From Amphiscolops sp. MND2022 (Eukaryota): DNA of 64,000 nucleotides. Made by a program: the position numbers and the translations under genes. Where the stretch lies: assembly GCA_964187785.1 (NCBI GenBank), contig OZ076409.1, positions 4,342,001 to 4,406,000 on the forward strand, written 5' to 3'. Shown piece after piece: positions 8,886 to 64,000 of the stretch. Under the pieces are notes generated by a model that was given only the letters and a program-made list of their open reading frames with translations, ran no database searches and was not told the origin of the DNA. Position 1 is the first letter of the stretch. Each line of letters begins with the position of its first letter.

Positions 8886-9170
8886 GGTAATGGTCACTTG
8901 GCGTGAAATCACTTTGCTTAAAGCCATTTGGTTTGATACACCTGGTCACTTGACTGAATTGTTTCCGGTAAAGGGTCAATTGGGTTAATACAGTTTGACT
9001 AAGAATCACAGCTGAAAACGCTGGGCAGATAATGTCGAAATTATCATAACGCGGTCAGCTATGTTCACGGTACCCTAAATGCAGGAGCGAAGCGTAACGA
9101 CGTGTCATTTGACCATGCCTCAATGTTGCAAGCTGGCGAAGGGATCGAAGCGACCGAGCCTCACATCAAA
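8886..9170 (+). mobile_element. Truncated end of a MITE related to the 34790-36104 family (also at 11188 and 13486)
   Basis: GGTAATGGTCACTTGGC...AAAGCCATTTGG...GGTCACTTGAC resembles the terminus at 34790. Confidence 0.6.
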
Positions 9171-9254
9171 TATGCTGAACTTTTCGTTATATATTTAATT
9201 CAGTTTTGTCCTTCAAAAGGTTGTTTTCAGCTAGTTTGTTCAATTCGAAAGTAA

Positions 9255-40601: not shown

Positions 40602-41584
40602 AGCTGTGATCGACCTCATTTTAGTTGAGCTGTATGGTCGTTTTAGGTTTTATGGTGTCACTTTTGGTATACTTTTGCTCTCGACATTTTTTTATTCCGG
40701 GAAAATCAGGGTCAAGAAGATCACTGCTCCGTTTTTTTTCTGCTTTTTTCTCCCGCTGCTTCTCGCGTTCCGATTTCTCCAAAAGCTGCTTCGGTAGACC
40801 TGCACAAACTGAAGTAGCTGTAGTAACTTTCACACAGATGTTAGTCAACTCGAACAACGTATGCCTCGTCAACTGACATGCCACAGGGTAGAAGTGGGTG
40901 ACAGGGCTTTGAACAGTGCCTATAACAATGACTAGGTTCAACTCCCTCAAACGGCACATGCGTTGTTTCTTTCAGTAAGTCCCATTGTTTTTCTTTCTAG
41001 AAAGGAAGAGTTTACGAGGTTGTCAAACAATTCGTTAGACTCGTCACTGGATTCTTCGAGCATAGGATCATTGTTGACTTTCACAACTCCGGTCCATTCT
41101 TGTCGTTTCCATTGCATTTTAACACTCGTACCTCCTTTTATTTCCAAAACGTCGGATAGAACAATAAATTTTTTGTACTGTACTTCTTGTTGTCCCTAAT
41201 ATCTTCAATAGCGTTATTATTCTTAAACGGTTTCCAATAAACTGATTGCCAATCAACTTGCGTAGATGCAGCCATTGCAAAATCTTAAATATATAATAGA
41301 TCAAGCTGAGAAGTAAGTAAAGATGAAGAAATATTTTGTTCATTACTGTGATCAAAAGGTCTTGAAATGGTTCGTCCTGATGAACAAATTCTTCTGTTTC
41401 CTAGCGTGTAATTCGTCTTCACTGTGATGATTCAGTGAAATATTCATTCTCGATGAAGTATTATGTTCATTGATTTTTTCCAAGATGTTTCAATACATTC
41501 TTTTTTAGTTGTTTGTGCAGATTTTTTCTGTAAATTTCAAATGTGCAGAATTTTGAAAGCTAATCCTTTTCTCAGTCGACTTCA
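40602..41584 (-). pseudogene. Second copy of the 5' part of the RepHel gene (truncated)
   Basis: Near-identical to 61307-62290 (ORFs 40621/61396, 40947/61652, 41119/61824). Confidence 0.85.
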
Positions 41585-42413
41585 TTTGTTTGAGTGTGCT
41601 CTTTTGATTGGACAGTGTGATGAGTGACGTCATTTCTGAAAGCTGACCGACCGACAAAGGGAGAGCTAGTTCTCAATACTTTTGGTAGTGCTCTTATTTT
41701 TATGTTACGTCATACATGTATCAAGAAATCATGAGTTAAAGTTTGTTCACTGAGATGAACATGGCCAATAAGAGATTGAAATCATCGATCGTTAAACAGC
41801 CACGCCGTGCAGTCGAAGATAGCTAAAATCATTAACAAAAATCAAAAACATCAAAGGCCCAACTTAAAAAAAAACGAATTGTTCACTGTGCACCAGTCTT
41901 CACAAAACTTCAATTTACTTCAGAGTCTTGAACAGAGCAAGAACAATATTGGGCGAATCTCTTTCGGTGTTTGATTCCACCTTACAATAGTACTAGACGT
42001 GTACGGTTGAACGGAGAGAGTCAAGAGAAAGAAAAGTGTTAAGAAAAGAAAGTTACTTACGTGATTGGAGAAGGATCGTCTTCAGTCGGGTGTTGCTTGA
42101 TAGGTTAATTAGTGGTTGATGATGTTCAAGAATATGGTAGTGTTGTTATTACATAAATGGTCGCACATATTCCAATTGAAATGTAAAATTTTCCTTGGCT
42201 TTTTTCACATTTTCCTAAAATCCTACTTAGATTTCATGTCAACCTCCTAACTGCTCACTCAGTGGCTCATTTAGAAAAACTCTACCAGGTAGAAAAAAAT
42301 GCAATTAGTTATCTACCTTTCCAAAATTCATTCTACCTGCTGATTTTGTTGTCAATAAGAACAGAAATTACCGATAATATGAGATTAATAACAAGAGTAT
42401 TTTGAGTTTAAAT

Positions 42414-42461
42414 TGTGGTGAATATCCGAAGTCTCACAAGGACCACACACTATTCACCACA
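42414..42461 (-). ncRNA. Conserved stem-loop just 3' of the OB-like gene (present in every array unit)
   Basis: 11-bp perfect outer stem TGTGGTGAATA/TATTCACCACA enclosing TGTGT-GGTC-CTTGTGA-GACT-TCGG; same core as 58109-58156 and 58177-58226. Confidence 0.6.
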
Positions 42462-45400
42462 GCAGCGCTGAATGGAAGCTAGTTTTAAAGGATGCCGATC
42501 ATTCTGTAGTGGTACCACTGTGCTAGCTGCTCTGTGGAAAGGCAGTTGCTGGCGCGATGCTGCATATGTGGAACTTTTTGTTCTCAACAGCAACCCTCTT
42601 GTCAATTGCAGGCTTGAACCATCCTTGGATGAAGCCTTGGGACCCGTTCACACTTGCAATCAATTTCTCAACAGCGGCGTCTAACTCAAACCTATCGAGA
42701 TTTTCATTGTCACCCTTAAGGCAACGAGCAGTCGAGGTGACAAAGACATTGGTGAGGGCGTTTGAATTCACTCGGAAAACATCACCGACATTGTTTATTT
42801 CCGTGGTGAGCTCGGGGCACGTGAAGGCAAGGGAGATAGCCCAGGTTCTGTCCTGGTTTGTTTCGAGGCGCGGGCATGGATCGTGGTAAGTCTGCCCGTC
42901 ACAAAGCCTAGATAGACAGACACTTTCGGCAACCAATGCGGAGTCTAGCTTAAGGGCTTCCGTGGTGAAGAGAAAACCGCCGTAGTTGCTGTTCTCCACG
43001 TCGAATGGCGGCGGAACGGAAACATTAGTCGGAGCGGCAATCGGTACAAAGGGCTCATTCGTTGTCACTAACATTGTTTGGCGCCGTGACAAATGGCCAA
43101 TCAGCTCGGGTTTCAGTAGATTTAGCTGTGTCCCGTACCAAAGTACGCAGCATATCTTGAAAGTTTCCTCGATTCCTCCGAATTTTCAGAAAATAGGGCG
43201 TACCAGCATGAAGAACCTACTGCATTGCGGAGCTGTAGTATTACATTCTTTCTTTTTTAGTTGTTTGTGCAGAATTTTTCTGCAAATTTCAAATATGCAG
43301 AATTTTGAAAGCTAATCCTTTTCTCAGTCGACTTCATTTGTTTGAGTGTGCTCTTTTGATTGGACAGTGTGATGAGTGACGTCATTTCTGAAAGCTGAAC
43401 GACCGACAAAGGGAGAGCTAGTTCTCAATAATTTTGGTAGTGCTCTCAATTTTATGTTACGTCATACATGTATTAAGAAATCATGAGTTAAAGTTTGTTC
43501 ACTGAGATGAACATGGCCAATAAGAGATTAAAATCATCGATCGTTAAACAGCCACACCGTGCAGTCGAAGATAGCTAAATTCATTAACAAAAATCAAAAA
43601 CATCAAAGGCCCAACTAAAAAACGAATTGTTCACTGTGCACCAGTCTTCACAAGACTTCAATTTACTTCAGAGTCTTGAACAGAGCTAGAACATTATTGG
43701 GCGAATCTCTTTCGGTGTTTGATTCCACCTTACAATAGTACTAGACGTGTACGGTTGAACGGAGAGAGTAAAGAGAAAGAAAAGTGTTAGGAAAAGAAAG
43801 TTACTTACGTGATTGGAGAAGGATCGTCTTCAGTCGGTTGTTGCTTGATAGGTTAATTAGTGGTTAATGATGTTCAAGAATGTGGTACTGTTGTTATTAC
43901 ATATATGGTCGCACATATTCCAATTGAAATGTAAAATTTACCTTGGCTTTTTTTTACATTTTCCTAAAATCCTACTTAGATTTCATGTCAACCTCCTAAC
44001 TGCTCACTCAGTGGCTCATTTAAAAAAACTGTACCAGGTAGAAAAAAATGCAATTAGTTATCTACCTTTCCAAAATTCATTCTACCTGCTGATTTTGTTG
44101 TCAATAAGAACACAAATTACCCTTAATATGATATTAATAAGAGTATTTTAATTTTAAATTGTGGTGAATATCCGAAGTCTCACAAAGACCACACACTATT
44201 CACCACAACAGCGCTGAATGGATGCTAGTTTTAAAGGATGTCGATCATTCTGTAGTGGTACCACTGTGGTAGCTGCTCTTTGGAAAGGGCAGTTGCTGGC
44301 GCGATGCTGCATATGTGGAACTTTTTGTTCTCAACAGCAACCCTCTTGTCAATTGCAGGGTTGAACCATCCTTGGATGGTGAAGCCTTGGAACCCGTTCA
44401 CACTTGCAATCAATTTCTCAACAGCGGCGTCTAACTCGAACTTCGAGTTTTTCATTGTCGCCCTTAAGGCAACGAGCAGTCGGGGTGACAAAGACATTGG
44501 TGAGGGCGTTTGAATTCACTCGGAAAACATCACCGACATTGTTTGTTTCCGTGGTGAGCTCGGGGCACGTGAAGGCAAGGGAGATAGCCCAGGTTCTGTC
44601 CTGGTTTGTTTCGAGGCGCGGGCATGGATCGTGGTAAGTCTGCCCGTCACAAAGCCTAGATAGACAGACACTTTCGGCAACCAATGCGGAGTCTAGCTTA
44701 AGGGCTTTCGTGGTAAAGAGAAAACCGCCGTAGTTGCTGTTCTCCACGTCGAATGGCGGCGGAACGGAAACATTAGTCGGAGCGGCAATCGGTACAAAGG
44801 GCTCATTCGTTGTCACTAACATTGTTTGGCGCCGTGACAAATGGCCAATCAGCTCGGGCTTCAGTAGATTTAGCTGTGTCCCCGTACCAAAGTACGCTGC
44901 ATATCTTGAAAGTTTCCTCGATTCCTCCGAATTTTCAGAAAACAGGGCGTAACAGCATGAAGAACTTACTGCATTGAGGAGCTGTAGTATTACATTCTTT
45001 CTTTTTTAGTTGTTTGTGCAGAATTTTTCTGCAAATTTCAAATATGCAGAATTTTCAAAGCCAAGCCTTTTCTCAGTCGACTTCATTCGTTTGAGTGTGC
45101 TCTTTTGATTGGACAGTGTGATGAGTGACGTCATTTCTGAAAGCTGAACGACCGACAAAGGGAGAGCTAGTTCTCAATAATTTTGGTAGTGCTCTCAATT
45201 TTATGTTACGTCATACATGTATTAAGAAATCATGAGTTAAAGTTTGTTCACTGAGATGAACATGGCCAATAAGAGATTGAAATCATCGATCGTTAAACAG
45301 CCACGCCGTGCAGTCGAAGATAGCTAAAATCATTAACAAAAATCAAAAACATCAAAGGCCCAACTAAAAAAAAACGAATTGTTCACTGTGCACCAGTCTT

Positions 45401-48400
45401 CACAAAGCTTCAATTTACTTCAGATTCTTGAACAGAGCAAGAACAATATTGGGCGATTCTCTTTCGGTGTTTGATTCCACCTTACAATAGTACTAGACGT
45501 GTATGGTTAAACGGAGAGTCAAGAGAAAGAGAAGTGTTAAGAAAAGAAAGTTACTTACGTGATTGGAGAAGGATCGTCTTCAGTCGGGTTTTGCTTGATA
45601 GGTTAATTAATGGTTAATGATGTTCAAGAATGTGGTAGTGTTGTTAATACATAAATGGTCGCACATATTCCAATTGAAATGTAAAATTTACCTTGGCTTT
45701 TTTTACATTTTCCTAAAATCCTACTTAGATTTCATGTCAACCTCCTAACTGCTCACTCAGTGGCTCATTTAAAAAAACTGTACCAGGTAGAAAAAAATGC
45801 AATTAGTTATCTACCTTTCCAAAATTCATTCTACCTGCTGATTTTGTTGTCAATAAGAACACGAATTACCCATAATATGATATTAATAAGAGTATTTTAA
45901 TTTTAAATTGTGGTGAATATCCGAAGTCTCACAAAGACCACACACTATTCATCACAACAGCGCTGAATGGATGCTAGTTTTAAAGGATGCCGATCATTCT
46001 GTAGTGGTACCACTGTGGTAGCTGCTCTGTGGAAAGGGCAGTTGCTGGCGCGATGCTGCATATGTGGAACTTTTTGTTCTCAACAGCAACCCTCTTGTCA
46101 ATTGCAGGGTTGAACCATCCTTGGATGGTGAAGCCTTGGGATCCGTTCACACTTGCAATCAATTTCTCAACAGCGGCGTCTAACTCGAACTTCGAGTTTT
46201 TCATTGTCGCCCTTAAGGCAACGAGCAGTCGGGGTGACAAAGACATTGGTGAGGGCGTTTGAATTCACTCGGAAAACATCACCGACATTGTTTGTTTCCG
46301 TGGTGAGCTCGGGGCACGTGAAGGCAAGGGAGATAGCCCAGGTTCTGTCCTGGTTTGTTTCGAGGCGCGGGCATGGATCGTGGTAAGTCTGCCCGTCACA
46401 AAGCCTAGACGGACAGACACTTTCGGCAACCAATGCGGAGTCTAGCTTAAGGGCTTTCGTGGTAAAGAGAAAACCGCCGTAGTTGCTGTTCTCCACGTCG
46501 AATGGCGGCGGAACGGAAACATTAGTCGGAGCGGCAATCGGTACAAAGGGCTCATTCGTTGTCACTAACATTGTTTGGCGCCGTGACAAATGGCCAATCA
46601 GCTCGGGCTTCAGTAGATTTAGCTGTGTCCCCGTACCAAAGTACGCTGCATATCTTGAAAGTTTCCTCGATTCCTCCGAATTTTCAGAAAATAGGGCGTA
46701 CCAGCATGAAGAACCTACTGCATTGCGGAGCTGTAGTATTACATTCTTTCTTTTTTAGTTGTTTGTGCAGAATTTTTCTGCAAATTTCAAATATGCAGAA
46801 TTTTCAAAGCTAAGCCTTTTCTCAGTCGACTTCATTCGTTTGAGTGTGCTCTTTTGATTGGACAGTGTGATGAGTGACGTCATTTCTGAAAGCTGAACGA
46901 CCGACAAAGGGAGAGCTAGTTCTCAATAATTTTGGTAGTGCTCTCAATTTTATGTTACGTCATACATGTATCAAGAAATCATGAGTTAAAGTTTGTTCAC
47001 TGAGATGAACATGGCCAATAAGAGATTAAAATCATCGATCGTTAAACAGCCACACCGTACAGTCGAAGATAGCTAAATTCATTAACAAAAATCAAAAACA
47101 TCAAAGGCCCAACTAAAAAAAAACGAATTGTTCACTGTGCACCAGTCTTCACAAAGCTTCAATTTACTTCAGATTCTTGAACAGAGCAAGAACAATATTG
47201 GGCGATTCTCTTTCGGTGTTTGATTCCACCTTACAATAGTACTAGACGTGTATGGTTAAACGGAGAGTCAAGAGAAAGAGAAGTGTTAAGAAAAGAAAGT
47301 AACTTACGTGATTGGAGAAGGATCGTCTTCAGTCGGGTGTTGCTTGATAGGTTAATTAGTGGTTAATGATGTTCAAGAATGTGGTAGTGTTGTTATTACA
47401 TAAATGGTCGCACATATTCCAATTGAAATGTAAAATTTACCTTGGCTTTTTTTACATTTTCCTAAAATCCTACTTAGATTTCATGTCAACCTCCTAACTG
47501 CTCACTCAGTGGCTCATTAAAAAAAACTGTACCAGGTAGAAAAAAAATGCAATTAGTTATCTACCTTTCCAAAATTCATTCTACCTGCTGATTTTGTTGT
47601 CAATAAGAACATAAATTACCGATAATATGAGATTAATAAGAGTATTTTAAGTTTAAATTGTGGTGAATAGCCGAAGTCTCACAAGGACCACACACTATTC
47701 ACCACAACAGCGCTGAATGGAAGCTAGTTTTAAAGGATGGCGATCATTCTGTAGTGGTACCACTGTGCTAGCTGCTCTGTGGAAAGGGCAGTTGCTGGCG
47801 CGATGCTGCATATGTGGAACTTTTTGTTCTCAACAGCAACCCTCTTGTCAATTGCAGGCTTGAACCATCCTTGGATGGTGAAGCCTTAGGACCCGTTCAC
47901 ACTTGCAATCAATTTCTCAACAGCGGCGTCTAACTCGAACCTATCGAGTTCTTAATTGTTGCCCTTAAGGCAACGAGCAGTCGGGGTGACAAAGACATTG
48001 GTGAGGGCGTTTGAATTCACTCGGAAAACATCACCGACATTGTTTGTTTCCGTGGTGAGCTCGGGGCACGTGAAGGCAAGGGAGATAGCCCAGGTTTTGT
48101 CCTGGTTTGTTTCGAGGCGCGGGCATGGATCGTGGTAAGTCTGCCCGTCACAAAGCCTAGACGGACAGACACTTTCGGCAACCAATGCGGAGTATAGCTT
48201 AAGGGCTTTCGTGGTAAAGAGAAAACCGCCGTAGTTGCTGTTCTCCACGTCGAATGGCGGCGGAACGGAAACATTAGTCGGAGCGCCAATCGGTACCAGG
48301 GGCTCATTCGTTGTCACTAACATTGTTTGGCCCCGTGACAAATGGCCAATCAGCTCGGGCTTCAGTAGATTTAGCTGTGTCCCCGTACCAAAGTACGCTG

Positions 48401-51235
48401 CATATCTTGAAAGTTTCCTCGATTCCTCCGAATTTTCAGAAAACAGGGCGTAACAGCATGAAGAACTTACTGCATTGAGGAGCTGTAGTATTACATTCTT
48501 TCTTTTTTAGTTGTTTGTGCAGAATTTTTCTGCAAATTTCAAATATGCAGAATTTTCAAAGCTAAGCCTTTTCTCAGTCGACTTCATTCGTTTGAGTGTG
48601 CTCTTTTGATTGGACAGTGTGATGAGTGACGTCATTTCTGAAAGCTGAACGACCGACAAAGGGAGAGCTAGTTCTCAATAATTTTGGTAGTGCTCTCAAT
48701 TTTATATTACGTCATACATGTATCAAGAAATCATGAGTTAAAGTTTGTTCACTGAGATGAACATGGCCAATAAGAGATTAAAATCATCGATCGTTAAACA
48801 GCCACACCGTACAGTCGAAGATAGCTAAATTCATTAACAAAAATCAAAAACATCAAAGGCCCAACTAAAAAAAACGAATTGTTCACTGTGCACCAGTCTT
48901 CACAAAGCTTCAATTTACTTCAGATTCTTGAACAGAGCAAGAACAATATTGGGCGACTCTCTTTCGGTGTTTGATTCCACCTTACAATAGTACTAGACGT
49001 GTATGGTTAAACGGAGAGTCAAGAGAAAGAGAAGTGTTAAGAAAAGAAAGTTACTTACGTGATTGGAGAAGGCTCGTCTTTAGTCGGGTGTTGCTTGATA
49101 GGTTAATTAGTGGTTAATGATGTTCAAGAATGTGGTAGTGTTGTTATTACATAAATGATCGCACATATTCCAATTGAAAAGTAAAATTTACCTTGGCTTT
49201 TTTTTACATTTTCATAAAATCCTACTTAGATTTCATGTCAACCTCCTAACTGCTCACTCAGTGGCTCATTTAAAAAAACTGTACCAGGTAGAAAAAAATG
49301 CAATTAGTTATCTACCTTTCCAAAATTCATTCTACCTGCTGATTTTGTTGTCAATGAGAACAGAAATTACCGATAATATGAGATCAATAACAAGAGTATT
49401 TTAAGTTTAAATTGTGGTGAATATCCGAAGTCTCACAAAGACCACACACTATTCACCACAACAGCGCTGAATGGATGCTAGTTTTAAAGGATGCCGATCA
49501 TTCTGTAGTGGTACCACTGTGGTAGCTGCTCTGTGGAAAGGGCAGTTGCTGGCGCGATGCTGCATATGTGGAACTTTTTGTTCTCAACAGCAACCCTCTT
49601 GTCAATTGCAGGTTTGAACCATCCTTGGATGGTGAAGCCTTGGGACCCCTTCACACTTGCAATCAATTTCTAAACAGCGGCGTCTAACTCGAACCTATCG
49701 AGTTCTTAATTGTTGCCCTTAAGGCAACGAGCAGTCGGGGTGACAAAGACATTGGTGAGGGCGTTTGAATTCACTCGGAAAACATCACCGACATTGTTTG
49801 TTTCCGTGGTGAGCTCGGGGCACGTGAAGGCAAGGGAGATAGCCCAGGTTCTGTCCTGGTTTGTTTCGAGGCGCGGGCATGGATCGTGGTAAGTCTGCCC
49901 GTCACAAAGCCTAGACGGACAGACACTTTCGGCAACCAATGCGGAGTATAGCTTAAGGGCTTTCGTGGTAAAGAGAAAACCGCCGTAGTTGCTGTTCTCC
50001 ACGTCGAATGGCGGCGGAACGGAAACATTAGTCGGAGCGGCAATCGGTACCAGGGGCTCATTCGTTGTCACTAACATTGTTTGGCCCCGTGACAAATGGC
50101 CAATCAGCTCGGGCTTCAGTAGATTTAGCTGTGTCCCCGTACCAAAGTACGCTGCATATCTTGAAAGTTTCCTCGATTCCTCCGAATTTTCAGAAAACAG
50201 GGCGTAACAGCATGAAGAACTTACTGCATTGAGGAGCTGTAGTATTACATTCTTTCTTTTTTAGTTGTTTGTGCAGAATTTTTCTGCAAATTTCAAATAT
50301 GCAGAATTTTCAAAGCTAAGCCTTTTCTCAGTCGACTTCATTCGTTTGAGTGTGCTCTTTTGATTGGACAGTGTGATGAGTGACGTCATTTCTGAAAGCT
50401 GAACGACCGACAAAGGGAGAGCTAGTTCTCAATAATTTTGGTAGTGCTCTCAATTTTATGTTACGTCATACATGTATCAAGAAATCATGAGTTAAAGTTT
50501 GTTCACTGAGATGAACATGGCCAATAAGAGATTAAAATCATCGATCGTTAAACAGCCACACCGTACAGTCGAAGATAGCTAAATTCATTAACAAAAATCA
50601 AAAACATCAAAGGCCCAACTAAAAAAAAAACGAATTGTTCACTGTGCACCAGTCTTTACAAAGCTTCAATTTACTTCAGATTCTTGAACAGAGCAAGAAC
50701 AAAATTGAGCGATTCTCTTTCGGTGTTTGATTCCACCTTACAATAGTACTAGACGTGTATGGTTAAACGGAGAGTCAAGAGAAAGAGAAGTGTTAAAAGA
50801 AAGTTACTTACGTGATTGGAGAAGGATCGTCTTCAGTCGGGTGTTGCTTGATAGGTTAATTAGTGGTTAATGATGTTCAAGAATGTGGTAGTGTTGTTAT
50901 TACATAAATGGTCGCACATATTCCAATTGAAATGTAAAATTTATCTTGGCTTTTTTTACATTTTCCTAAAATCCTACTTAGATTTCATGTCAACATCCTA
51001 ACTGCTCACTCAGTGGCTCATTAAAAAAAACTGTACCAGGTAGAAAAAAATGCAATTAGTTATCTACCTTTCCAAAATTCATTCTACCTGCTGATTTTGT
51101 TGTCAATGAGAACAGAAATTACCGATAATATGAGATCAATAACAAGAGTATTTTAAGTTTAAATTGTGGTGAATATCCGAAGTCTCACAAGGACCACACA
51201 CTATTCACCACAACAGCGCTGAATGGAAGCTAGTT

Positions 51236-51850
51236 TTAAAGGATGCCGATCATTCTGTAGTGGTACCACTGTGGTAGCTGGTCTGTGGAAAGGGCAGTTG
51301 CTGGCGCGATGCTGCATATGTGGAACTTTTTGTTCTCAACAGCAACCCTCTTCTCGTCAATTGCAGGCTTGAACCATCCTTGGATGGTGAAGCCTTGGGA
51401 CCCGTTCACACTTGCAATCAATTTCTCAACAGCGGCGTCTAAGTCGATCCTATCGAGTTTTTCATTGTCGCCCTTAAGGCAACGAGCAGTCGGGGTGACC
51501 AAGACATTGGTGAGTGCGTTTGAATTCACTCGAAAAACATCACCGACATTGTTCATTTCCGTGGTGAGCTCGGGGCACGTGAAGGCAAGGGAGATAGCCC
51601 AGGTTCTGTCCTGGTTTGTTTCGAGGCGCGGGCATGGATCGTGGTAAGTCTGCCCGTCACAAAGCCTAGACGGACAGACACTGTCGGCAACCAATGCGGA
51701 GTCTAGCTTAAGGGCTTTCGTGGTAAAGAAAAAACTGCCGTAGTTGCTGTTCTCCACGTCGAATGGCGGCGGATCGGAAACATTAGTCGGAGCGGCAATC
51801 GGTACCAGGGGCTCATTCGTTGTCACTAACCTTGTTTGGCCCCGTGACAA
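51236..51850 (-). pseudogene. 5'-truncated copy of the OB-like gene, open for 204 aa (near-identical twin at 52984-53598)
   Basis: ORF track; best-preserved C-terminal half (CPSRLCDGQ..CP..GFTIQGWFKP..HICSI). Confidence 0.7.
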
Positions 51851-54737
51851 ATGGCCAATCAGCTCGGGCTTCAGTAGATTTAGCTGTGTCCCGTACCAAA
51901 GTACGCAGCATATCGTGAAAGTTTCCTCGATTCCTCCGAATTTTCAGAAAACAGGGCGTACCAGCATGAAGAACCTACTGCATTGAGGAGCTGTAGTATT
52001 ACATTCTTTTTTAGTTGTTTGTGCAGAATTTTTCTGAAAATTTCAAATATGCAGAATTTTCAAAGCTAAGCCTTTTCTCAGTCGACTTCATTCGTTTGAG
52101 TGTGCTCTTTTGATTGGACAGTGTGATGAGTGACGTCATTTCTGAAAGCTGAACGACCGACAAAGGGAGAGCTAGTTTTCAATAATTTTGGTAGTGCTCT
52201 CAATTTTATGTTACGTCATACATGTATCAAGAATCATGAGTTAAAGTTTGTTCACTGAGATGAACATGGCCAATAAGAGATTAAAATCATCGATCGTTAA
52301 ACAGCCACACCGTACAGTCGAAGATAGCTAAATTCATTAACAAAAATCAAAAACATCAAAGGCCCAACTAAAAAAAACGAATTGTTCACTGTGCACCAGT
52401 CTTCACAAAACTTCAATTTACTTCAGAGTCTTGAACAGAGCAAGAACAATATTGGGCGAATCTCTTTCGGTGTTTGATTCCACCTTACAATAGTACTAGA
52501 CGTGTACGGTTGAACGGAGAGAGTCAAGAGAAAGAAAAGTGTTAAAAGAAAGTTACTTACGTGATTGGAGAAGGATCGTCTTCAGTCGGGTGTTGCTTGA
52601 TAGGTTAATTAGTGGTTAATGATGTTCAAGAATGTGGTAGTGTTGTTATTACATAAATGGTCGCACATATTCCAATTGAAATGTAAAATTTATCTTGACT
52701 TTTTTTACATTTTCCTAAAATCCTACTTAGATTTCATGTCAACATCCTAACTGCTCACTCAGTGGCTCATTAAAAAAACTGTACCAGGTAGAAAAAAATG
52801 CAATTAGTTATCTACCTTTCCAAAATTCATTCTACCTGCTGATTTTGTTGTCAATGAGAACAGAAATTACCGATAATATGAGATCAATAACAAGAGTATT
52901 TTAAGTTTAAATTGTGGTGAATATCCGAAGTCTCACAAGGACCACACACTATTCACCACAACAGCGCTGAATGGAAGCTAGTTTTAAAGGATGCCGATCA
53001 TTCTGTAGTGGTACCACTGTGGTAGCTGGTCTGTGGAAAGGGCAGTTGCTGGCGCGATGCTGCATATGTGGAACTTTTTGTTCTCAACAGCAACCCTCTT
53101 CTCGTCAATTGCAGGCTTGAACCATCCTTGGATGGTGAAGCCTTGGGACCCGTTCACACTTGCAATCAATTTCTCAACAGCGGCGTCTAAGTCGATCCTA
53201 TCGAGTTTTTCATTGTCGCCCTTAAGGCAACGAGCAGTCGGGGTGACCAAGACATTGGTGAGTGCGTTTGAATTCACTCGAAAAACATCACCGACATTGT
53301 TCATTTCCGTGGTGAGCTCGGGGCACGTGAAGGCAAGGGAGATAGCCCAGGTTCTGTCCTGGTTTGTTTCGAGGCGCGGGCATGGATCGTGGTAAGTCTG
53401 CCCGTCACAAAGCCTAGACGGACAGACACTGTCGGCAACCAATGCGGAGTCTAGCTTAAGGGCTTTCGTGGTAAAGAGAAAACTGCCGTAGTTGCTGTTC
53501 TCCACGTCGAATGGCGGCGGATCGGAAACATTAGTCGGAGCGGCAATCGGTACCAGGGGCTCATTCGTTGTCACTAACCTTGTTTGGCCCCGTGACAAAT
53601 GGCCAATCAGCTCGGGCTTCAGTAGATTTAGCTGTGTCCCGTACCAAAGTACGCAGCATATCGTGAAAGTTTCCTCGATTCCTCCGAATTTTCAGAAAAC
53701 AGGGCGTACCAGCATGAAGAACCTACTGCATTGAGGAGCTGTAGTATTACATTCTTTTTTAGTTGTTTGTGCAGAATTTTTCTGAAAATTTCAAATATGC
53801 AGAATTTTCAAAGCTAAGCCTTTTCTCAGTCGACTTCATTCGTTTGAGTGTGCTCTTTTGATTGGACAGTGTGATGAGTGACGTCATTTCTGAAAGCTGA
53901 ACGACCGACAAAGGGAGAGCTAGTTTTCAATAATTTTGGTAGTGCTCTCAATTTTATGTTACGTCATACATGTATCAAGAATCATGAGTTAAAGTTTGTT
54001 CACTGAGATGAACATGGCCAATAAGAGATTAAAATCATCGATCGTTAAACAGCCACACCGTACAGTCGAAGATAGCTAAATTCATTAACAAAAATCAAAA
54101 ACATCAAAGGCCCAACTAAAAAAAAACGAATTGTTCACTGTGCACCAGTCTTCACAAAACTTCAATTTACTTCAGAGTCTTGAACAGAGCAAGAACAATA
54201 TTGGGCGAATCTCTTTCGGTGTTTGATTCCACCTTACAATAGTACTAGACGTGTACGGTTGAACGGAGAGAGTCAAGAGAAAGAAAAGTGTTAAGAAAAG
54301 AAAGTTACTTACGTGATTGGAGAAGGATCGTCTTCAGTCGGGTGTTGCTTTATAGGTTAATTAGTGGTTAATGATGTTCAAGATAGTGGTAGTGTTGTTA
54401 TTACATAAATGATCGCACATATTCCAATTGAAAAGTAAAATTTACCTTGGCTTTTTTTTACATTTTCATAAAATCCTACTTAGATTTCATGTCAACCTCC
54501 TAACTGCTCACTCAGTGGCTCATTAAAAAAAACTGTACCAGGTAGAAAAAAATGCAATTAGTTATCTACCTTTCCAAAATTCATTCTACCTGCTGATTTT
54601 GTTGTCAATGAGAACAGAAATTACCGATAATATGAGATCAATAACAAGAGTATTTTAAGTTTAAATTGTGGTGAGTATTCGAAGTCTCACAAGGACCACA
54701 CACTATTCACCACAACAGCGCTGAATGGAAGCTAGTT

Positions 54738-55730
54738 TTAAAGGATGCCGATCATTCTGTAGTGGTACCACTGTGGTAGCTGCTCTGTGGAAAGGGCAGT
54801 TGCTGGCGCGATGCTGCATATGTGGAACTTTTTGTTCTCAACAGCAACCCTCTTCTCGTCAATTGCAGGCTTGAACCATCCTTGGATGGTGAAGCCTTGG
54901 GACCCGTTCACACTTGCAATCATTTTCTCAACAGCGGCGTCTAACTCGAACCTATCGAGTTTTTAATTGTCGCCTTTAAGGCAACAAGCAGTCGGGGTGA
55001 CAACGACATTGGTGAGGGCGTTTGAATTCACTCGGAAAACATCACCGACATTGTTTATTTCCGTTGTGAGCTCGGGGCACGTGAAGGCAAGGGAGATAGC
55101 CCAGGTTCTGTCCTGGTTTATTTCGAGGCGCGGTCATGGATCGTTGTAAGTCTGCCCGTCACAAAGCCTAGACGGACAGACACTTTCGGCAACCAATGCG
55201 GAGTCTAGCTTAAGGGCTTTCGTGGTAAAGAGAAAACCGCCGTAGTTGCTCTTCTCCACGTCGAATGGCGGCGGAACGGAAACATTAATCGGAGCTGCAA
55301 TCGGTACCAGGGGCTCATTCGTTGTCACTAACCTTGTTTGGCCCCGTGACAAATGGCCAATCAGCTCGGGCTTCAGTAGATTTAGCTGTGTCCCCGTACC
55401 AAAGTACGCAGCATATCTTGAAAGTTTCCTCGATTCCTCCGAATTTTCAGAAAACAGGGCGTAGCAGCATGAAGAACCTACTGCATTGAGGAGGAAGAAT
55501 CTATATTTCTCAACCTCCAATTTCCTGGACGCCTGCCCATAATTTTTAGTTGTTCTGGAGTAGTTGATCTTCTTGGCGGGCTGTGCTGCGTAGAAAAACG
55601 TGACTGAGAGTTTAGAGAGTCTCGGAAGATTGTCTTGACCTTCGAACGTCGATGGATCTGTGGTGGTGAACTTCGCTGCTTTTGATTGAGCACTTGACAA
55701 ATTCAGTTTAGCTTCTAGGAAGCTCGGCAT
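54738..55730 (-). pseudogene. Full-length accessory gene (~330 aa), putative RPA70-like OB-fold/zinc-ribbon ssDNA-binding protein; in-frame stops
   Basis: ATG at 55730; frame continues through TGA at 55134 (TGC in other copies) to TAA at 54738; beta-rich pattern with a Cys cluster. The OB-fold call is inference from context, since Helitrons are known to carry RPA-like genes. Confidence 0.55.
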
Positions 55731-56777
55731 TATTTATCAAGGAATTCGAAAACATAAGTCACGTTTTCAGAATGTTATTTTTCACCGAGCAAATGGAAGC
55801 ATTCGTCTAAACCAGGTTACAATTAGTTTTGGTCTCAAAATACTCTTGAATTGTCCGGAAAAAGTCAATTAACAAGGGAAAAGTGAATATATATGTACAG
55901 TTTGATACCATAAACAAGTTACTATTATACAGTTACGGATTTAATCGATATCTGTTTCAATGGAAACCGGGAAGTCATTTGAATGTCCATACCACAAATC
56001 CTGGTAAACTGTACGCTAATGACTATAATACAAACATAACACTATTAACAAGTTCGATATATACAGGTTTATATACAATGAATAGCTTAAGATGGACCTG
56101 AAACGTGATAAATTTTCGTGGACTCCCCTTTGTTAATGTATTAAGTTACATTATTGAGATAGTGAAGTTGATGTATTTTATTAGGTGCAAGTTGGAGAAA
56201 AATTGGATAAATTAGAAAAATTCGGTTTAGGTTTTGAAAAGATGGCGAAGTAAAAGAAACTTTCAGAACAAACTAAAAAGATTTTCGAAAAAAAACTAAA
56301 AATTCTAAAAATGTTGATGAAAAAGCTTGAAAAGTAAAAACAATCCACACTTTCCAATATTGAAAGTGTTTGTTTTTTTTTGGTTTATTGGTTTTTTTTG
56401 GGTTTTTTAAATATTTTTTTGGCGGGCGGGGGGGGGGGGGGTTACAGGATTATACATTTTTTTGGGTTTTGTATACTGGTAAACAGCCTTTTTTTGTTTT
56501 TTTTGGAGTTTCTGGTTTTTTCTTTCAACCCAGAAAACTTGGCAAACTGGGCGCAAATTTTGAGACAGCTGCTTCGGGTCCAGGTTGAAGCAAGGACGTA
56601 GACAAGCATAACTTTTTCCGCGAAGACAGCTGGCAATCGTGTGAGCAGGCCAGGTTTCCTCTCCATCTCTTCTACGTCGCCAGAACCCTAATAAAAAGAA
56701 AAAGTCGGAAAAGAAGAAAAGAGAGGAAAAAAGTCAGTTTAAGCGCTTAAAGGGCCTAAACTGAAAAAGCGCATGTT

Positions 56778-57438
56778 TTAAGAATCTTGTTCACGGAAGG
56801 AACGAATAATTCTACCAGGCGATAAATTTCGCGAAGTTTGAGTTTGATGAACCATATCATTAACTTTGAACGCAGAATTAGTTAATTTCAAATCGAAGTA
56901 ATGGAAAAAGTTATCCTTTAAGAGGCGATTCATTTTATTGTCAAGTAAAGTATCATATTCATTTGGGGGCATTTGACTCTGCTGACTTACTGCTCCGGGC
57001 TCATTTTTTTCATCAGTCTTCCTCCTTCTACACAAAACAACAACGTAACGAATATCTCTTGCCTTGGCTTTTCGTTCTAAACCCCTCAAAATGTGAATAA
57101 TGCTTTCTGGGGACTCAGGCTTATGATGCAATGGATTCAGTCATGGGGCAACTGTAAGGCTATTCATAATAACATCCATATTTAACACAATCGTGGAGGA
57201 ATTCGAATTCAGAGCCTGCTGAAACAAATTTTTAGCCTCTTTTTCCCAATTAATGTGATTAAACTTAGCTCCTTGTTTCGCAAAAATTTTGAAATCGATA
57301 TGAGGGGGTGTTCCAGTCCAGTGAGATGATCCAGGGGTTGCGAACAGTTGGGAGTGTCGCAGTTGCAAGCAACCAGGGGCAGCTTCTGAATAGAAACGAG
57401 GTTGCTGGCTCCGACGACGACAATTTTTGGAGCTTCCA
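56778..57438 (-). pseudogene. SGNH/GDSL hydrolase-like accessory gene (frameshift and in-frame TGA)
   Basis: KIVVVGASNL (block I), KQGAK (II), DVIMNSL (III), NDMVHQ (V) across ORFs 57209, 57141 and 56778. Confidence 0.6.
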
Positions 57439-57614
57439 TTTGATCTGAAGACAAATACAAAGGTTGATGTTTTTCGCATAAGTGGAAGTAATCATTGTTA
57501 CATGAATGAAAACAGTGCAAGTAACAAGCCCTGAAAGACTATGCTACAACTAGGCTAACGACCTGTGGCTAATAGTCAAAGTATCCCTAGCAGGCAACTC
57601 CATATATTAGATCC

Positions 57615-57848
57615 CTTCTTTCTTCATCGTCGTCCGTTGTCCCTTTTATTACAAATAATACGAATATAAATACTACATATGCTCATCTTCTTTCCTCATC
57701 GTCGTCCGTTGTCCCTTTTATCACAAATATTATGAGTATAAATAGTACATATGCTAATCTTCTTTCATCGTCGTCCGTTGTCCTTTTGATTACAAATATT
57801 ACGAATGAAAATAGTACATATGCTCATCTTTCTTCTTCGTCGTCGGCT
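57615..57848. repeat. Minisatellite, about 3.5 copies of a ~70-bp unit
   Basis: CATCGTCGTCCGTTGTCC...ACAAATA...TACATATGCTCATCTT repeated at 57625, 57697, 57766 and (degenerate) 57835. Confidence 0.9.
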
Positions 57849-58108
57849 GTCTCTTACTGCAAACAATTTAATTCGAAAACTACTGCGGTTGCTGTTACTC
57901 TGAGGTCTGTATTATCTTTCTTCATCTCAACCTTCTAGCTCATCTCAGGGAAAACCAAATGTAAGAGTAGGAAAAGAGTTGAATTCAGTCAGTCATTAAG
58001 TCTAGTTTTAGTTCTTTTCTGTCAAAAAAGTCGAAAAGTCTTGTTGAAAAAAGTCAGAATCGGAGTCAATTGTCCGTGCAGTGATAGTTTTCTTTTAATT
58101 TATGGGTT

Positions 58109-58226
58109 GGTGTATGAACTCCGAAGACTCACAAGGTCTACACAAGCTCAGACACCGTTATTAGATTTTCAGTAGTTTGTGCATGAACTTCGAAGACTCA
58201 CAAGGTCCACACAACATCATACACAA
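58109..58226 (-). ncRNA. Two tandem copies of the conserved stem-loop 3' of the RepHel gene
   Basis: 58109-58156 and 58177-58226 share the core TGTGT-RGAC-CTTGTGA-GTCT-TCGR with different but self-complementary outer stems. Confidence 0.6.
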
Positions 58227-58431
58227 TAGATTCTTCTTCATCATCCACTAAGCTGTCACTTCTGCTGTTCTTGATTTGATGGTAACTACCAGTAATAGAC
58301 GTTAACCTACCTTCCTAGATTTTACGCACCAGTTTTAAGAGGCAAATGGCTCAAAAGGGCAACATACCTCGAAGTTTACATTACATGATTTTTTACTCTA
58401 ACTAGTACGACCGCAAACACAAAAGTAGAGG

Positions 58432-61400
58432 TTAGTTTTTCTCGTTCATTTTTTCCTGAAAAAGAGCTGTCATGTCGTTTAATGTTTTAAGATTGGCGCG
58501 GCGCTGATACATCGCATTATGTAAGTCTCGCTCTAAGTCTACACGGGAACTATCGGAGTCAAAGTTACAAACAAACGCGGCAATGGCCCAAGGTAATCGA
58601 TGCGATACGTTTGTAAAGTCTGATCCATTTCCGCTGTTATGTCCCGAGAGACGTACTAAAAAGGCGCGTTTAGTTTGACCAACGTAAAAGGTTTGGAGCG
58701 AGCACTGGTTGACACTGAATAATAAGTACACAAAACCATTAGGTGTTTCAGGGATTGTTTCATTAAAAGGTACGTAAGACGTTCTTGAAACGTTGATGGG
58801 TTCTACAATAGACCCTGACCTTGAATTTCTTCTTATTTTATCAAGTAAAGAAAACATGTGTTCTTCTTTTCGATCCCGTTGTTGGAAAAGTGTTTTAATG
58901 GCGCTCAACGTAGCTGTTTTATCTCCGACAAAAGTTAGTTTTTTCAATTGCTTAACACGACTAACGATGACGAAATTTTGCGCCGTCATCCACAAGGCAT
59001 AGCTTTTATCCGTTGCCGAGATGGACGTCGCCAGCTTGTCAAACGTATCACCCATTAAATTGTGAGTTGTCAGAGCAACAAAGTTCATTAGGGGAATTTG
59101 GGTTCGTCTCACTGAGTTTTACTTGAAAGCTTGAACAAACCCAGTTTGCCTGGTCAAACTCACAGTCCCCCAGGTAAGGTATTCTCCACGTTGCAACATC
59201 TAAGGAGTGATGCTTACCTCACCACCGCTACTGTCTGGGACGTAAATTGTTACCGAGTCACCTGTAGGAACGTCATGAAGAACCCCGACCTGTCCTTGAG
59301 ACAACTGCTCAGATTTCAAATTGACAGTGACCCTAATCAAAGCTTTTGAGTAAACAATTAGCTGCTTCGGTTCGTTTACCTTGTCGTTCAGATGGTCGGT
59401 GCTCGCAATTATTGTCGAATCAATTAAACCTTGCGTTTTTTGTTATTTAGTTCAGCCAAAATTTTCCTAGTTTTTTATTTTCAATTTTTTGAACCTGCAC
59501 ATTGTGGGCATTCGCGGGATTCATGGAGACATCAGCATGTTCTTCTTTACCAGCTGCGTAAGATGTTAAATACCTTGAAGCGACTGATTTGCAAACTTTA
59601 AGAACATTTAAACTGGACTTGGTAATGCTCCACAAAGCTACATTAAGAGGTGACATGTGCTCTCCTTTTTGGGCAGCGTACATATACTTACCAGCCAACA
59701 AAGTAGACGTTACCTGCAAAACGTTGAAATACCCCGGCATTGCCTCAGCCAAGCCAAGTTCTTGCAATGCTTCCAGGGCTTCTCTGGAATGGGGCTGGTG
59801 GAACTCTTTGTACCACGGAACGTGACTTTGCGGGTAAGCAGGAAAGCGACATTTACGTTCCCCATTTAACCATAACTTTTTAAAGCAATGTCCCTTTTCA
59901 CAGTCATGCGTTTGAACACGAACACAATCATCGTACAACCTACCTGCGTGTTCTTCACTATTCAGTCCCAAAATTGATTTCGAACTATTTTTTGAAATGG
60001 TGCAGGACATGTTGCACATTGAATTTTTTCCAAGATGTCTTCGTCTGAAGGTTTCAACCAAAAAAAAATGTGGTAATGCTGTAAATTAGCGGCAGCACTC
60101 TGGAATTCTGCCCTACCCCACACTTTTAAAATTTCGCCTAAAATGTGTTAGTCAGAGAACCTGAGGTAATCAAGTAAAAGTTCGATGGTTCTGGTCCAAC
60201 ATCGCACAATAATTACCATGTACGCTCGGAGTATTTCTTTTTGCTCTTCTGTTGTTGCGGAACCAAAAAGTTCCTAAATAGCTTGTAAGTAGCAGTACTA
60301 CTTCTGCTACTCCCGGATGTTCTTCTTGATTACAAGTGAATGTTACAAACAAATCAGGTGTTTCAGATGCGCACGCTGTTCCTAACCGGTTTACATGTAC
60401 ATCGCTATCGACACTGTCCATTTTTAAAACACTTTCTGTTGACGTTAGTTGGTGTGGTCTATACTTATCAATAGAACTTGTCTGCAAACCTCTTTTGAAA
60501 AACTGGTTTGCGTGGCATTTTGTCAAAGATAAATTTAAAACGGCATCGATTGCGTGCATGATGTAAGGCAAGCTAGATGATGTCAACAGTGTCCTGTCTT
60601 TAAGTCGTAGCCTTAAGTGTTCATGCAAACCATCATAATCGAATTTGGAATTGGTTTTTTTGTCGTCGTAAACGAAAAATGGCAGAGCTCCGGGAAACGA
60701 GCCGTCTTCTAATTGTTTATAAAAAATGCTGGGAAACAAACAAGCCTCAGGTTGAAGTAAAGGAATTGATCTACCTGGTCAAAACACTACGAAAATTTGA
60801 ATAAATCGTTGGAATTTCTTACCTACATGCTTAGGATATTTCAACCGTTTCATTACCTGACATTCACCATTTAATAAAACGTGCATTGGCACGAATTTCG
60901 AGTCATTGGATAAGTACACAGGTTCGGATTCCTGTGTTCCCGCATCGACAAATAACTCAGGGCAATCGAACTCGTTCATATTTGCTTCTGGGTCTTCTTC
61001 TGGTCTTTTAACAAAGTCCAAGTTAAACACGTTTTCGTGTCCTACAACTGGTTCGTCAACCACAGCTGCTGGGACATCATGTTCTTCGTCGCTGCTGTCG
61101 TTGATGCAGACGGTGTGTTTTTCAGCAGACGGTGTGTTGTCGACCAGAACACGATCGGTGCTATCGCAGAACTCGGTGAAGTGAGTTTTGCAAACAGAGG
61201 CACAGCATTGTTTTTCAGGACAGCGCCACGCAGACTTACGTGTACAAATACCAATGGTGTTTCTGGGAACACTACATTTCTGAAAACTAGTGTTTCTGGG
61301 AACATTAGCTGTGATCGACTTCTTTTTAGTTGAGCTGTATGGTCGTTTTATGTTTTATGGTGTCACTTTTGGTATACTTTTGCTCTCGACATTTTTTATT

Positions 61401-62290
61401 CGGGGAATATCAGGGTCAAGAAGATCACTGCTCCGTTTTTTTCTGCTTTTTTCTCCCGCTGCTTCTCGCGTTCCGATTTCTCCAAAAGCTGCTTCGGTAG
61501 ACCTGCACAAACTGAAGTAGCTGTAGTAACTTTCACACAGATGTTAGTCAACTCGAACAACGTATGCCTCGTCAACTGACATGCCACAGGGTAGAAGTGG
61601 GTGACAGGGCTTTGAACAGTGCCTATAACAATGACTAGGTTCAACTTTCCCTCAAACGGCACATGCGTTGTTTCTTTCAGTAAGTCCCATTGTTTTTCTT
61701 TCTAGAAAGGAAGAGTTTACGAGGTTGTCAAACAATTCGTTAGACTCGTCACTGGATTCTTCGAGCATAGGATCATTGTTGACTTTCACAACTCCGGTCC
61801 ATTCTTGTCGTTTCCATTGCATTTTAACACTCGTACCTCCTTTTATTTCCAAAACGTCGGATAGAACAATAAATTTTTTGTACTGTACTTCTTGTTGTCC
61901 CTAATATCTTCAATAGCTTTATTATTCTTAAACGGTTTCCAATAAACTGATTGCCAAACAACTTGCGTAGATGCAGCCATTGCAAAATCTTAAATATATA
62001 ATAGATCAAGCTGAGAAGTAAGTAAAGATGAAGAAATATTTTGTTCATTACTGTGATCAAAAGGTCTTGAAATGGTTCGTCCTGATGAACAAATTCTTCT
62101 GTTTCCTAGCGTGTAATTCGTCTTCACTGTGATGATTCAGTGAAATATTCATTCTCGATGAAGTATTATGTTCATTGATTTTTTCCAAGATGTTTCAATA
62201 CATTCTTTTTTAGTTGTTTGTGCAGATTTTTTCTGTAAATTTCAAATGTGCAGAATTTTGAAAGCTAATCCTTTTCTCAGTCGACTTCAT
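58432..62290 (-). pseudogene. RepHel: HUH replication initiator, Pif1-family helicase (internally deleted) and C-terminal GIY-YIG nuclease
   Basis: LFVTFTCN (motif 1, ~60340), WGRAEFQSAAANLQHYHI (HUH, ~60070-60120), RYLTSYAAG (Y2, ~59560); helicase EPKQLIVY..TVN..SQGQVG, RRTQIPL..ALTTHNLMGDT, VIVSRV; GFVYLL..FYVGQT..RLSGHNSG..PW. Walker A/B region lost at ~59445. Confidence 0.88.
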
Positions 62291-62299
62291 TTGTTTGAG

Positions 62300-62420
62300 T
62301 GTGCTCTTTTGATTGGACAGTGTGATGAGTGACGTCATTTCTGAAAGCTGACCGACCGACAAAGGGAGAGCTAGTTCTCAATACTTTTGGTAGTGCTCTT
62401 ATTTTTATGTTACGTCATAC
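62300..62420 (-). promoter_or_regulatory. Putative RepHel promoter (copied in each array unit)
   Basis: CCAAT (62312-62316, minus), perfect CRE TGACGTCA (62330-62337) and TTACGTCA (~62410) upstream of the ATG at 62290. Confidence 0.4.
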
Positions 62421-64000
62421 ATGTATCAAGAAATCACGAGTTAAAGTTTGTTCACTGAGATGAACATGGCCAATAAGAGATTGAAATCATCGATCGTTAA
62501 ACAGCCACGCCGTGCAGTCGAAGAGCTAAAATCATTAACAAAAATCAAAAACATCAAAGGCCCAACTAAAAAAAAACGAATTGTTCACTGTGCACCAGTC
62601 TTCACAAAACTTCAATTTACTTCAGAGTCTTGAACAGAGCAAGAACAATATTGGGCGAATCTCTTTCGGTGTTTGATTCCACCTTACAATAGTACTAGAC
62701 GTGTACGGTTGAACGGAGAGAGTCAAGAGAAAGAAAAGTGTTAAGAAAAGAAAGTTACTTACGTGATTGGAGAAGGATCGTCTTCAGTCGGGTGTTGCTT
62801 GATAGGTTAATTAGTGGTTAATGATGTTCAAGAATATGGTAGTGTTGTTATTACATAAATGGTCGCACATATTCCAATTGAAATGTAAAATTTTCCTTGG
62901 CTTTTTTCACATTTTCCTAAAATCCTACTTAGATTTCATGTCAACCTCCTAACTGCTCACTCAGTGGCTCATTTAGAAAAACTCTACCAGGTAGAAAAAA
63001 ATGCAATTAGTTATCTACCTTTCCAAAATTCATTCTACCTGCTGATTTTGTTGTCAATAAGAACAGAAATTACCGATAATATGAGATTAATAACAAGAGT
63101 ATTTTGAGTTTAAATTGTGGTGAATATCCGAAGTCTCACAAGGACCACACACTATTCACCACAACAGCGCTGAATGGAAGCTAGTTTTAAAGGATGCCGA
63201 TCATTCTGTAGTGGTACCACTGTGGTAGCTGCTCTGTGGAAAGGGCAGTTGCTGGCGCGATGCTGCATATGTGGAACTTTTTGTTCTCAACAGCAACCCT
63301 CTTGTCAATTGCAGGGTTGAACCATCCTTGGATGGTGAAGCCTTGGGACCCGTTCACACTTGCAATCAGTTTCTCAACAGCGGCGTCTAACTCGAACTTC
63401 GAGTTTTTCATTGTCGCCCTTAAGGCAACGAGCAGTCGGGGTGACAAAGACATTGGTGAGGGCGTTTGAATTCACTCGGAAAACATCACCGACATTGTTT
63501 GTTTCCGTGGTGAGCTCGGGGCACGTGAAGGCAAGGGAGATAGCCCAGGTTCTGTCCTGGTTTGTTTCGAGGCGCGGGCATGGATCGTGGTAAGTCTGCC
63601 CGTCACAAAGCCTAGATAGACAGACACTTTCGGCAACCAATGCGGAGTATAGCTTAAGGGCTTTCGTGGTAAAGAGAAAACCGCCGTAGTTGCTGTTCTC
63701 CACGTCGAATGGCGGCGGAACGGAAACATTAGTCGGAGCGGCAATCGGTACCAGGGGCTCATTCGTTGTCACTAATGGGGTAGAACTGGTAATTGACATT
63801 TCCGTGGGAAGAAAACATTTTGAATCTGAAAAATGAGGAAATTAGAATCTAAACTGTATAAACAGCAGTATGTGCATAAGTACAATAAATTAGAAGTGAA
63901 ATGTACTCGTGATAATTTGATACTGATAATATACTGGAAGTATTTTGATGAATTTTTACGATTTACTGGCGCTGTTATATTCTAATCTGTGCTTTTTCTG

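Follow-up and report, generated by a model that had tools for sequence, protein, structure and literature searches.

A Helitron-like lineage with an SLX1-type GIY-YIG fusion and mixed head-to-tail trains in Amphiscolops

We analyzed a 64,000-nucleotide stretch of the genome of Amphiscolops sp. MND2022 (assembly GCA_964187785.1, contig OZ076409.1, positions 4,342,001 to 4,406,000; hereafter the window). At 54245-61306 on the minus strand, it contains a decayed copy, with an internal deletion, of a Helitron-like transposon present in many copies. Intact copies encode a HUH Rep region and a Pif1 helicase (RepHel) fused to an SLX1-type GIY-YIG domain. The lineage to which this element belongs and its anatomy are almost certainly real. 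The elements start with GTG, end with CTRG (CTAG or CTGG), and form mixed trains of uniform orientation, with CTAG|GTG at the joints, that are up to megabases long. The sequences at these junctions suggest that the element probably inserts behind CTWG, with the 3' ends of resident copies preferred under a rule like that of IS91, and that this self-targeted insertion builds the mixed trains. The initial annotation of the window described the gene set but said nothing of the termini, of the trains or of a target rule.

Transposase, nuclease domain and accessory genes

We searched the 1.07-Gb assembly with window 58400-61000 as the DNA query and obtained 48 matches. A listing of family matches in the genome gave 20 with open frames of 2,369-2,386 amino acids (aa) and four with open frames of 2,350-2,603 aa; seven of the former and all four of the latter were fetched and read. 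Helitron_like_N, PIF1 and GIY-YIG were found in a single open reading frame in 4/4 intact copies scanned, the GIY-YIG score of one of them being slightly below the curated cut-off. The intact gene order is one RepHel-GIY-YIG protein of ~2,370 aa, then an SGNH-like gene and then an OB-fold gene. These intact copies bear out the in-frame fusion of RepHel to an SLX1-type GIY-YIG that the initial annotation had read from the window. HUH Rep motifs I-III precede the Pif1 helicase in one protein, and we identify the family transposase as a RepHel because motifs I, II (HUH) and III align with those of the canonical Helitrons of this genome. Compared with the HLE1 rows, motif II of the element has two extra residues. 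All motifs that the initial annotation had quoted were recovered on the minus strand of the window. Its atypical Pif1 motif, THNLMGDT, is indeed present there, but intact copies read THKLMGDT or VHKLMGDT.

The family proteins could be aligned nearly full length by blastp at 25-47% identity. The transposase domains and accessory genes are under purifying selection: the proportion of non-synonymous differences (pN) was far below that of synonymous differences (pS) in every transposase domain and in both accessory genes, with a pN of 0.19-0.21 and a pS of 0.84-0.88 for the GIY-YIG domain between subfamilies. Two conserved cysteine-rich N-terminal regions, residues 75-420 and 695-765 of the intact protein P0001, had no Pfam match and were present in 70/71 and 67/71 long representatives, respectively. 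Some members (P0132, P0018, P0038, P0040, P0049) carry a Ulp1-type protease behind the GIY-YIG or an N-terminal OTU domain.

The last helicase motif was identified in 104 of the 150 best representatives; in 93 of the 104 it is followed by 110 aa or more, and the other 11 are too short. With a census profile built from family members, a GIY-YIG domain was found 46-80 aa downstream of this motif in 91 of the 93 representatives with room, and the R-x3-H core was kept in 70 of the 91 domains. The RepHel-GIY-YIG fusion is a clade character rather than a one-off capture. A profile of eight GIY-YIG domains searched against the PDB gave seven matches, comprising five SLX1 structures (best E=2.2e-7) and two UPF0213 proteins, and an NCBIfam search of the domain gave no match. 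In the window, the frame 58432-59118 itself contains a Pfam PF01541 GIY-YIG match (E=2.7e-6).

The two accessory genes of the initial annotation are open in sister copies, whereas both are broken in the window copy. The protein of the second gene was modelled from a 23-row alignment with a predicted local distance difference test score (pLDDT) of 79, compared to 33 for a single-sequence model. The top Foldseek matches were RPA, CST and LEF-3, at low template modelling scores of 0.2-0.3. The N-terminal domain was superimposed on MCM10 (Z 9.5, root mean square deviation (rmsd) 3.2, 113 aligned) and on RPA70 (Z 8.4, rmsd 3.0, 105 aligned). Nothing above 0.8 was found for this protein in the Atlas, and profile searches of the PDB and Pfam were empty. 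The confident fold and the structural matches agree with the OB-fold assignment of the initial annotation, and the gene is predicted to encode a single-strand DNA-binding protein, its N-terminal domain being the part tested. The OB gene was located after the transposase even in subfamilies whose transposases are only ~30% identical, and it was present at 17/54 metagenome loci, on either strand, many loci being too short to tell; it was unseen behind L096 or L031. The OB gene travels with the clade.

In the SGNH gene, blocks I, II, III and V (Ser, Gly, Asn, Asp-x-x-His) were invariant in 6/6 sequences. The protein had no Pfam or PDB match; its Atlas neighbours at 0.93-0.94 had Lipase_GDSL_2 on 21-30% of members, which gives weak external support. 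Two barely related versions of the gene alternate between close subfamilies, and the gene was unseen in three distant subfamilies and, with a six-sequence profile of low sensitivity, in the 54 metagenome loci. The SGNH gene of the initial annotation therefore retains its block residues but is a swappable passenger under selection, outside the core gene set. Stand-alone SGNH genes borne by transposons are described for texim in fish Helitrons (PMC4021074), and GDSL and GIY-YIG reading frames for Terminons (PMC6431247); the likeness is by description, and the clade alternates two unlike SGNH versions.

Position of the clade among Helitron-like elements

The clade comprised 359 representatives at E<=1e-30, and its members were found at 54 loci in metagenome contigs. 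A viral or prokaryotic origin was considered and rejected, as no relative was found in viral contigs and prokaryote genomes with the patterns used, and the phage and plasmid matches were Pif1 helicases at 23-31%. The family formed one side of a branch with a support of 100/100 in the Rep tree and 100/99 in the helicase tree; with three prokaryotic Pif1 rows, HLE1 and HLE2 were grouped in the helicase tree at only 85/88. The final helicase tree omits eight near-redundant rows. The clade forms a monophyletic group separate from the HLE1 and HLE2 of this genome, and the distinct, poorly described lineage that the initial annotation had suspected is upheld in this respect. Its deeper placement is less firm: in approximately unbiased (AU) tests, neither the joining of the family with HLE2 nor that with HLE1 was rejected (p=0.117 each), and the HLE1 and HLE2 references were taken from this genome only, with 5-6 for HLE2. 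Both points tell against a separate rank. One Helitron protein, on the 19.7-kb contig C1762 (L104), differed in residue composition from the other aligned sequences and is possibly from another organism.

Judged by its sequence traits (multiple copies, defined ends, non-autonomous derivatives and no target-site duplication), the element is assigned to the broad Helitron-like class; the solo units L115 and L117 had no duplicated flank. Like HLE1, the canonical Helitrons (e.g., Helraiser, PDB 7lcc), the clade has a two-tyrosine HUH Rep with Pif1, an OB/RPA-like accessory gene and 3' ends, CTAG or CTGG, that agree with CTRR. However, HLE1 has a 5' TC and inserts between A and T, whereas the clade has a 5' GTG behind CTRG or CTTG (CTWG in the proposed rule) and a C-terminal GIY-YIG. 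Furthermore, only the helicase core could be aligned with Helraiser (7lcc, E=1.5e-4), more weakly than with bacterial Pif1 (7.6e-12). Helentrons carry an AP endonuclease behind the helicase; in the clade the GIY-YIG occupies that place, and Exo_endo_phos (AP endonuclease) was found in 0/43 family proteins.

Alternatively, the clade could be a long-branched HLE2, an unclassified HELIANO cluster or a Repbase family that is already catalogued, with the GIY-YIG as one more captured domain. Both the AU result and the OTU domains found in several relatives are compatible with this explanation, and PMC11417382 reports at least four unclassified HELIANO clusters, a GIY-YIG in the moss HLE2 family HelenSM92 of Sphagnum, and a 5' hairpin in some HLE2 variants. 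HLE2 (Helitron2/Helentron) also shares with the clade a long RepHel, an OTU domain in some members and an extra nuclease. According to the same source, DUF6570 marks HLE2, and HLE2 inserts T|T and has terminal inverted repeats. DUF6570 was absent from the 43 clade proteins scanned, although it gave 42 matches elsewhere in the genome, where HLE2 carries it; T-T insertion was not seen in the termini read, and ends and target appear to differ from those described for HLE2; and the nuclease is of the SLX1 type. In addition, the Rep region gave no blastp alignment to this genome's HLE1 or HLE2, the helicase alone being aligned. HelenSM92 has a GIY-YIG as in the clade but HLE2 ends, and is set apart by description. 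We thus consider an already catalogued origin rather unlikely, while Repbase or the unclassified HELIANO clusters may hold members of the clade.

The third Helitron clade, from Paramecium (PMC13085455), resembles the present one in standing apart from HLE1 and HLE2, in its very long open reading frame, in its many derivatives without such a frame, and in a proposed site-specific, oriented insertion. It differs, as described, in its telomeric-repeat target and CCAA end, which were not found here. Its member Hel01 ends ~85 codons past the last helicase motif (by eye), compared to about 175 in the clade, and so has little room for a GIY-YIG.

We found no published account of the lineage, of its domain combination or of self-targeted mixed trains in literature outside Repbase, Dfam and subscription journals, and passages of 10.64898/2026.09.17.752431 and PMC8788227 contained nothing on the clade. 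The view of the initial annotation that a GIY-YIG together with an SGNH gene lies outside known descriptions holds for the combination, but each has been published singly: a GIY-YIG in moss HLE2 and SGNH genes in fish Helitrons are already in print, as are a telomere-targeted Paramecium clade and centromeric Helitron arrays. Helitron classification rests on two clades and a recent ciliate one, and target choice and joining are still open; the present, widespread clade differs in its fused nuclease and its ends and has a target rule that can be read from sequence. That it amounts to a further major rolling-circle lineage, on a par with HLE1, HLE2 and the Paramecium clade and characterized by the RepHel-SLX1 fusion, the OB protein, an IS91-like rule with the 3' end as landing site, and megabase shuffled arrays that are possibly centromeric, is a tentative proposal whose chances we put slightly short of even.

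Element ends, trains and a proposed target rule

Genome-wide, 708/713 copies of one 5' end were directly behind CTRG. After the window's own 3' 19-mer, GTG came next 159 times and a base other than G 19 times (five of these in the window; G without TG was excluded from the counts). In apparently unique DNA, 5' ends were preceded by CTTG three times and by CTAG twice. Where 3' ends abutted other DNA, the next bases were NT in 14/16 and AT in 9/16 cases; AT, GT and TT predominated, with exceptions. The units start with GTG and have a hairpin 30-60 nt inside, whose loop is fixed while the paired arms vary. Folding of 40 types gave a mean of -8.5 kcal/mol with their own arms vs -6.1 +/- 0.3 with swapped arms. 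With regard to the short hairpin near the 3' end of HLE1, most unit types had a strong palindrome 35-60 nt from the end, and the window's type had none. In metagenome contigs, the hairpin loop gave five matches on the gene strand, two of them near copies, and none on the opposite strand (0.8 expected per strand). Immediately upstream of three of the matches was CTRG|GT or CTAG|TT, and two of the three lay right behind the element. Since these distant relatives keep the loop and CTRG|GT, the train habit may be clade-wide.

The 20-bp palindrome 35-60 nt before the 3' ends of most units (e.g., L022:6486-6546) forms a perfect hairpin and closely matches the p53-family response element. One form occurred in 194 copies and another, in which the two outer bases had changed jointly, in 24; the palindrome was absent from the window's own end type.

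Seven intact copies (L021, L023, L027, L029, L031, L033, L038) are surrounded by ~1.3-kb non-coding units with CTAG|GTG joints, whereas the decayed copies L025 and L035 have no such setting. Trains were also found behind three distant subfamilies. At C1, about 70.5-76.5 Mb, three samples totalling 200 kb were read as well as several loci; in the three samples, 139/139 5' signatures were on one strand and units tiled nearly all DNA. This block holds many open-frame copies and is a candidate centromere or heterochromatin. Among 216 units from 14 regions, 87 families were distinguished at 94% identity, and 28 of the 34 multi-copy families were present in more than one region. Unit pairs with a common 3' end also had their own 5' end in common in 735/1,455 cases (217 by shuffling). 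Units thus keep their own ends but change neighbours, as discrete units inserted at junctions do, with some local duplication on top. Two other candidates were rejected: host RNA gene arrays as the target, with no Rfam match in 104 kb and no tRNA in 10 loci, and units as coding cassettes, with no open reading frame over 134 aa among the unit types listed.

Helitron and IS91 chemistry underlies the nick, peel-off and termination steps that we propose. Insertion would occur immediately after a tetranucleotide CT(A/G/T)G, preferentially where this forms the 3' end of a relative already in place. Rep would nick at the 5' GTG and stay bound, by analogy with that chemistry, the helicase would peel off one strand, and the OB protein would coat the stripped strand until a second nick after CTAG terminates the copy. 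Because the target resembles the element's own end, a cut behind a resident CTAG could free a 3'-OH that captures the newcomer, and every insertion would leave two usable junctions. Non-coding units of about 1-5 kb with the same ends would ride along, and the GIY-YIG, placed behind the helicase, would process the branched integration intermediate. SLX1 enzymes cut branched DNA, and the domain may trim or nick such an intermediate instead of choosing the site; this is the weakest step, with about even chances of being right.

The same activity of SLX1 enzymes, together with the near-universal retention of the domain at a fixed spacing and the purifying selection on it, would also suit a GIY-YIG that itself, rather than Rep, picks and cuts the target in a Penelope- or homing-nuclease-like manner, e.g., via the hairpin-bearing junction. 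We regard such a role as unlikely, as IS91 reaches tetranucleotide specificity with a HUH transposase, and a train lies immediately downstream even in the L102 subfamily, whose GIY-YIG is degenerate. In the IS91 family, the target CTTG or GTTC resembles the element's own terminator site CTCG, and no target duplication is formed (10.1101/2025.01.24.634351). Bacterial IS91 is likewise a rolling-circle HUH transposon, whereas it has no fused helicase or GIY-YIG, and its resemblance to the clade is in logic only.

The trains could also have formed after insertion, with rolling-circle concatemers, unequal crossing-over or gene conversion scrambling a few founders without any resident-end preference. 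The array in the window is of such a kind, the neighbour statistics given below show a modest excess in this direction, and tandem Helitrons of plant centromeres are cited in PMC13404089. However, crossing-over in common middles predicts kept junction pairs and broken 5'-3' linkage, and the data show the reverse; the same unit families occur in distant regions with new neighbours, and transposase subfamilies only ~30% alike occupy the same kind of train. Formation after insertion is therefore quite improbable as the sole source of the trains. Still less probable, in our estimate, is that they are a host-maintained structure, such as centromere or heterochromatin, in which element ends have been co-opted and a host protein makes use of the p53-like palindrome. 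The one-strand C1 block and the 4,733 exact genome-wide copies of a 29-mer near most 3' ends are consistent with host maintenance, as opposed to the smaller trains and solo units at many other places. Host-maintained trains are compatible with self-targeted insertion and not an exclusive alternative to it.

Several points weigh against the proposed mechanism. Same-family neighbours numbered 19/193 vs 12.2 by shuffling (p=0.017), and pairs with a common 3' end had the next unit's 5' end in common in 301/1,628 cases (216.5 by shuffling); both excesses indicate that local duplication also contributes, and the ~1.75-kb array of the window is a plain local tandem duplication. The sampled regions were picked from family matches, which favours trains, and no insertion event or empty site was observed for the elements. 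Some 5' ends lay behind other tetranucleotides (CAGT, CTGT, CTCG), and the 3'-end type of the window had no strong hairpin. A hexamer target would occur too often to account for the trains by itself, so that a preference for resident ends had to be assumed in addition. The R-x3-H core was missing in 21/91 GIY-YIG domains.

With many open-frame copies and thousands of substrates in one genome, three questions can be put to the test: whether the termination reaction, acting on a resident end, is what captures the target; how a rolling-circle transposase benefits from an accessory nuclease; and whether satellite-like DNA, possibly that of centromeres, can arise through self-targeting. If the proposed rule is true, the transposase would be a natural enzyme that stacks DNA cassettes at a fixed junction.

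The window copy and its surroundings

The initial annotation had placed the element at 54738..62290. The element is real, but its bounds were corrected as given above, the remainder being duplicated flank (Table 1). All that remains of the 2,372-aa intact protein is codons 712-1364 and 2040-2367, interrupted by frameshifts and stops. About 2 kb of the helicase was deleted at 59395/59397, and the Walker A region is gone. The copy is a dead pseudogene.

Table 1. Features of the element copy and adjoining repeats in the window
Feature	Position	Strand	Basis or remark
Decayed RepHel-GIY-YIG gene	58414..61306	-	tblastn of intact protein P0001; blastn to L021, L023
HVLLN motif	60883-60869	-	window copy
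SIPLLQPEACLFPSIF motif	60769-60722	-	window copy
Rep motif I (FVTFTCN), FVTFTCNQEEHPG	60349-60311	-	alignment and tblastn
Rep motif II, HUH (EFQxxAxNLQHYH), EFQSAAANLQHYH	60108-60070	-	alignment and tblastn
Rep motif III, two tyrosines (YLTSY)	59572-59558	-	aligned with HLE1 YLYKY; clade-conserved
Pif1 C-terminal motif THNLMGDT	59067-59044	-	intact copy reads THKLMGDT
SLX1-type GIY-YIG domain	58480..58734	-	lower boundary approximate; Pfam PF01541 and SLX1 profile matches
FVYLL motif	58734-58720	-	window copy
YVGQT motif	58686-58672	-	window copy
72-bp minisatellite within element	57615..57855	.	sister copies have it too
SGNH/GDSL-like gene	56784..57439	-	one frameshift and one stop; 220 aa in L022
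GASNL motif	57412-57398	-	window copy
OB-fold gene, predicted single-strand DNA-binding protein	54762..55730	-	two stops; about 330 aa in L022
Element 3' terminus, last bases CTAG	54245..54263	-	sister-copy homology stops there
Flank duplicate (copy of 40602-41992), outside element	61307..62694	-	sequence comparison
Additional element 3' fragment (partial OB gene and CTAG end)	62695..63787	-	homology
Local tandem array, eight ~1.75-kb units	41494..55493	-	self-comparison

Each unit of the local array consists of about 1.25 kb of the element's 3' part and about 0.5 kb of flank, and there are nine CTAG ends in the window, counting the one at 62695. A second tandem array, with a period of about 1,465 bp, was found in the 10 kb beyond the window's right end (L040); it has 119 bp in common with the flank, plus window 63775-64000. 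Decayed fragments at 38900-40600 on the minus strand resemble, by eye, a piggyBac-type transposase. Elsewhere in the window, three tandem copies of about 2.3 kb each lie at 8038-14904, and a dispersed 1.76-kb duplicate with 97% identity lies at 16869-18631 and 26648-28399.

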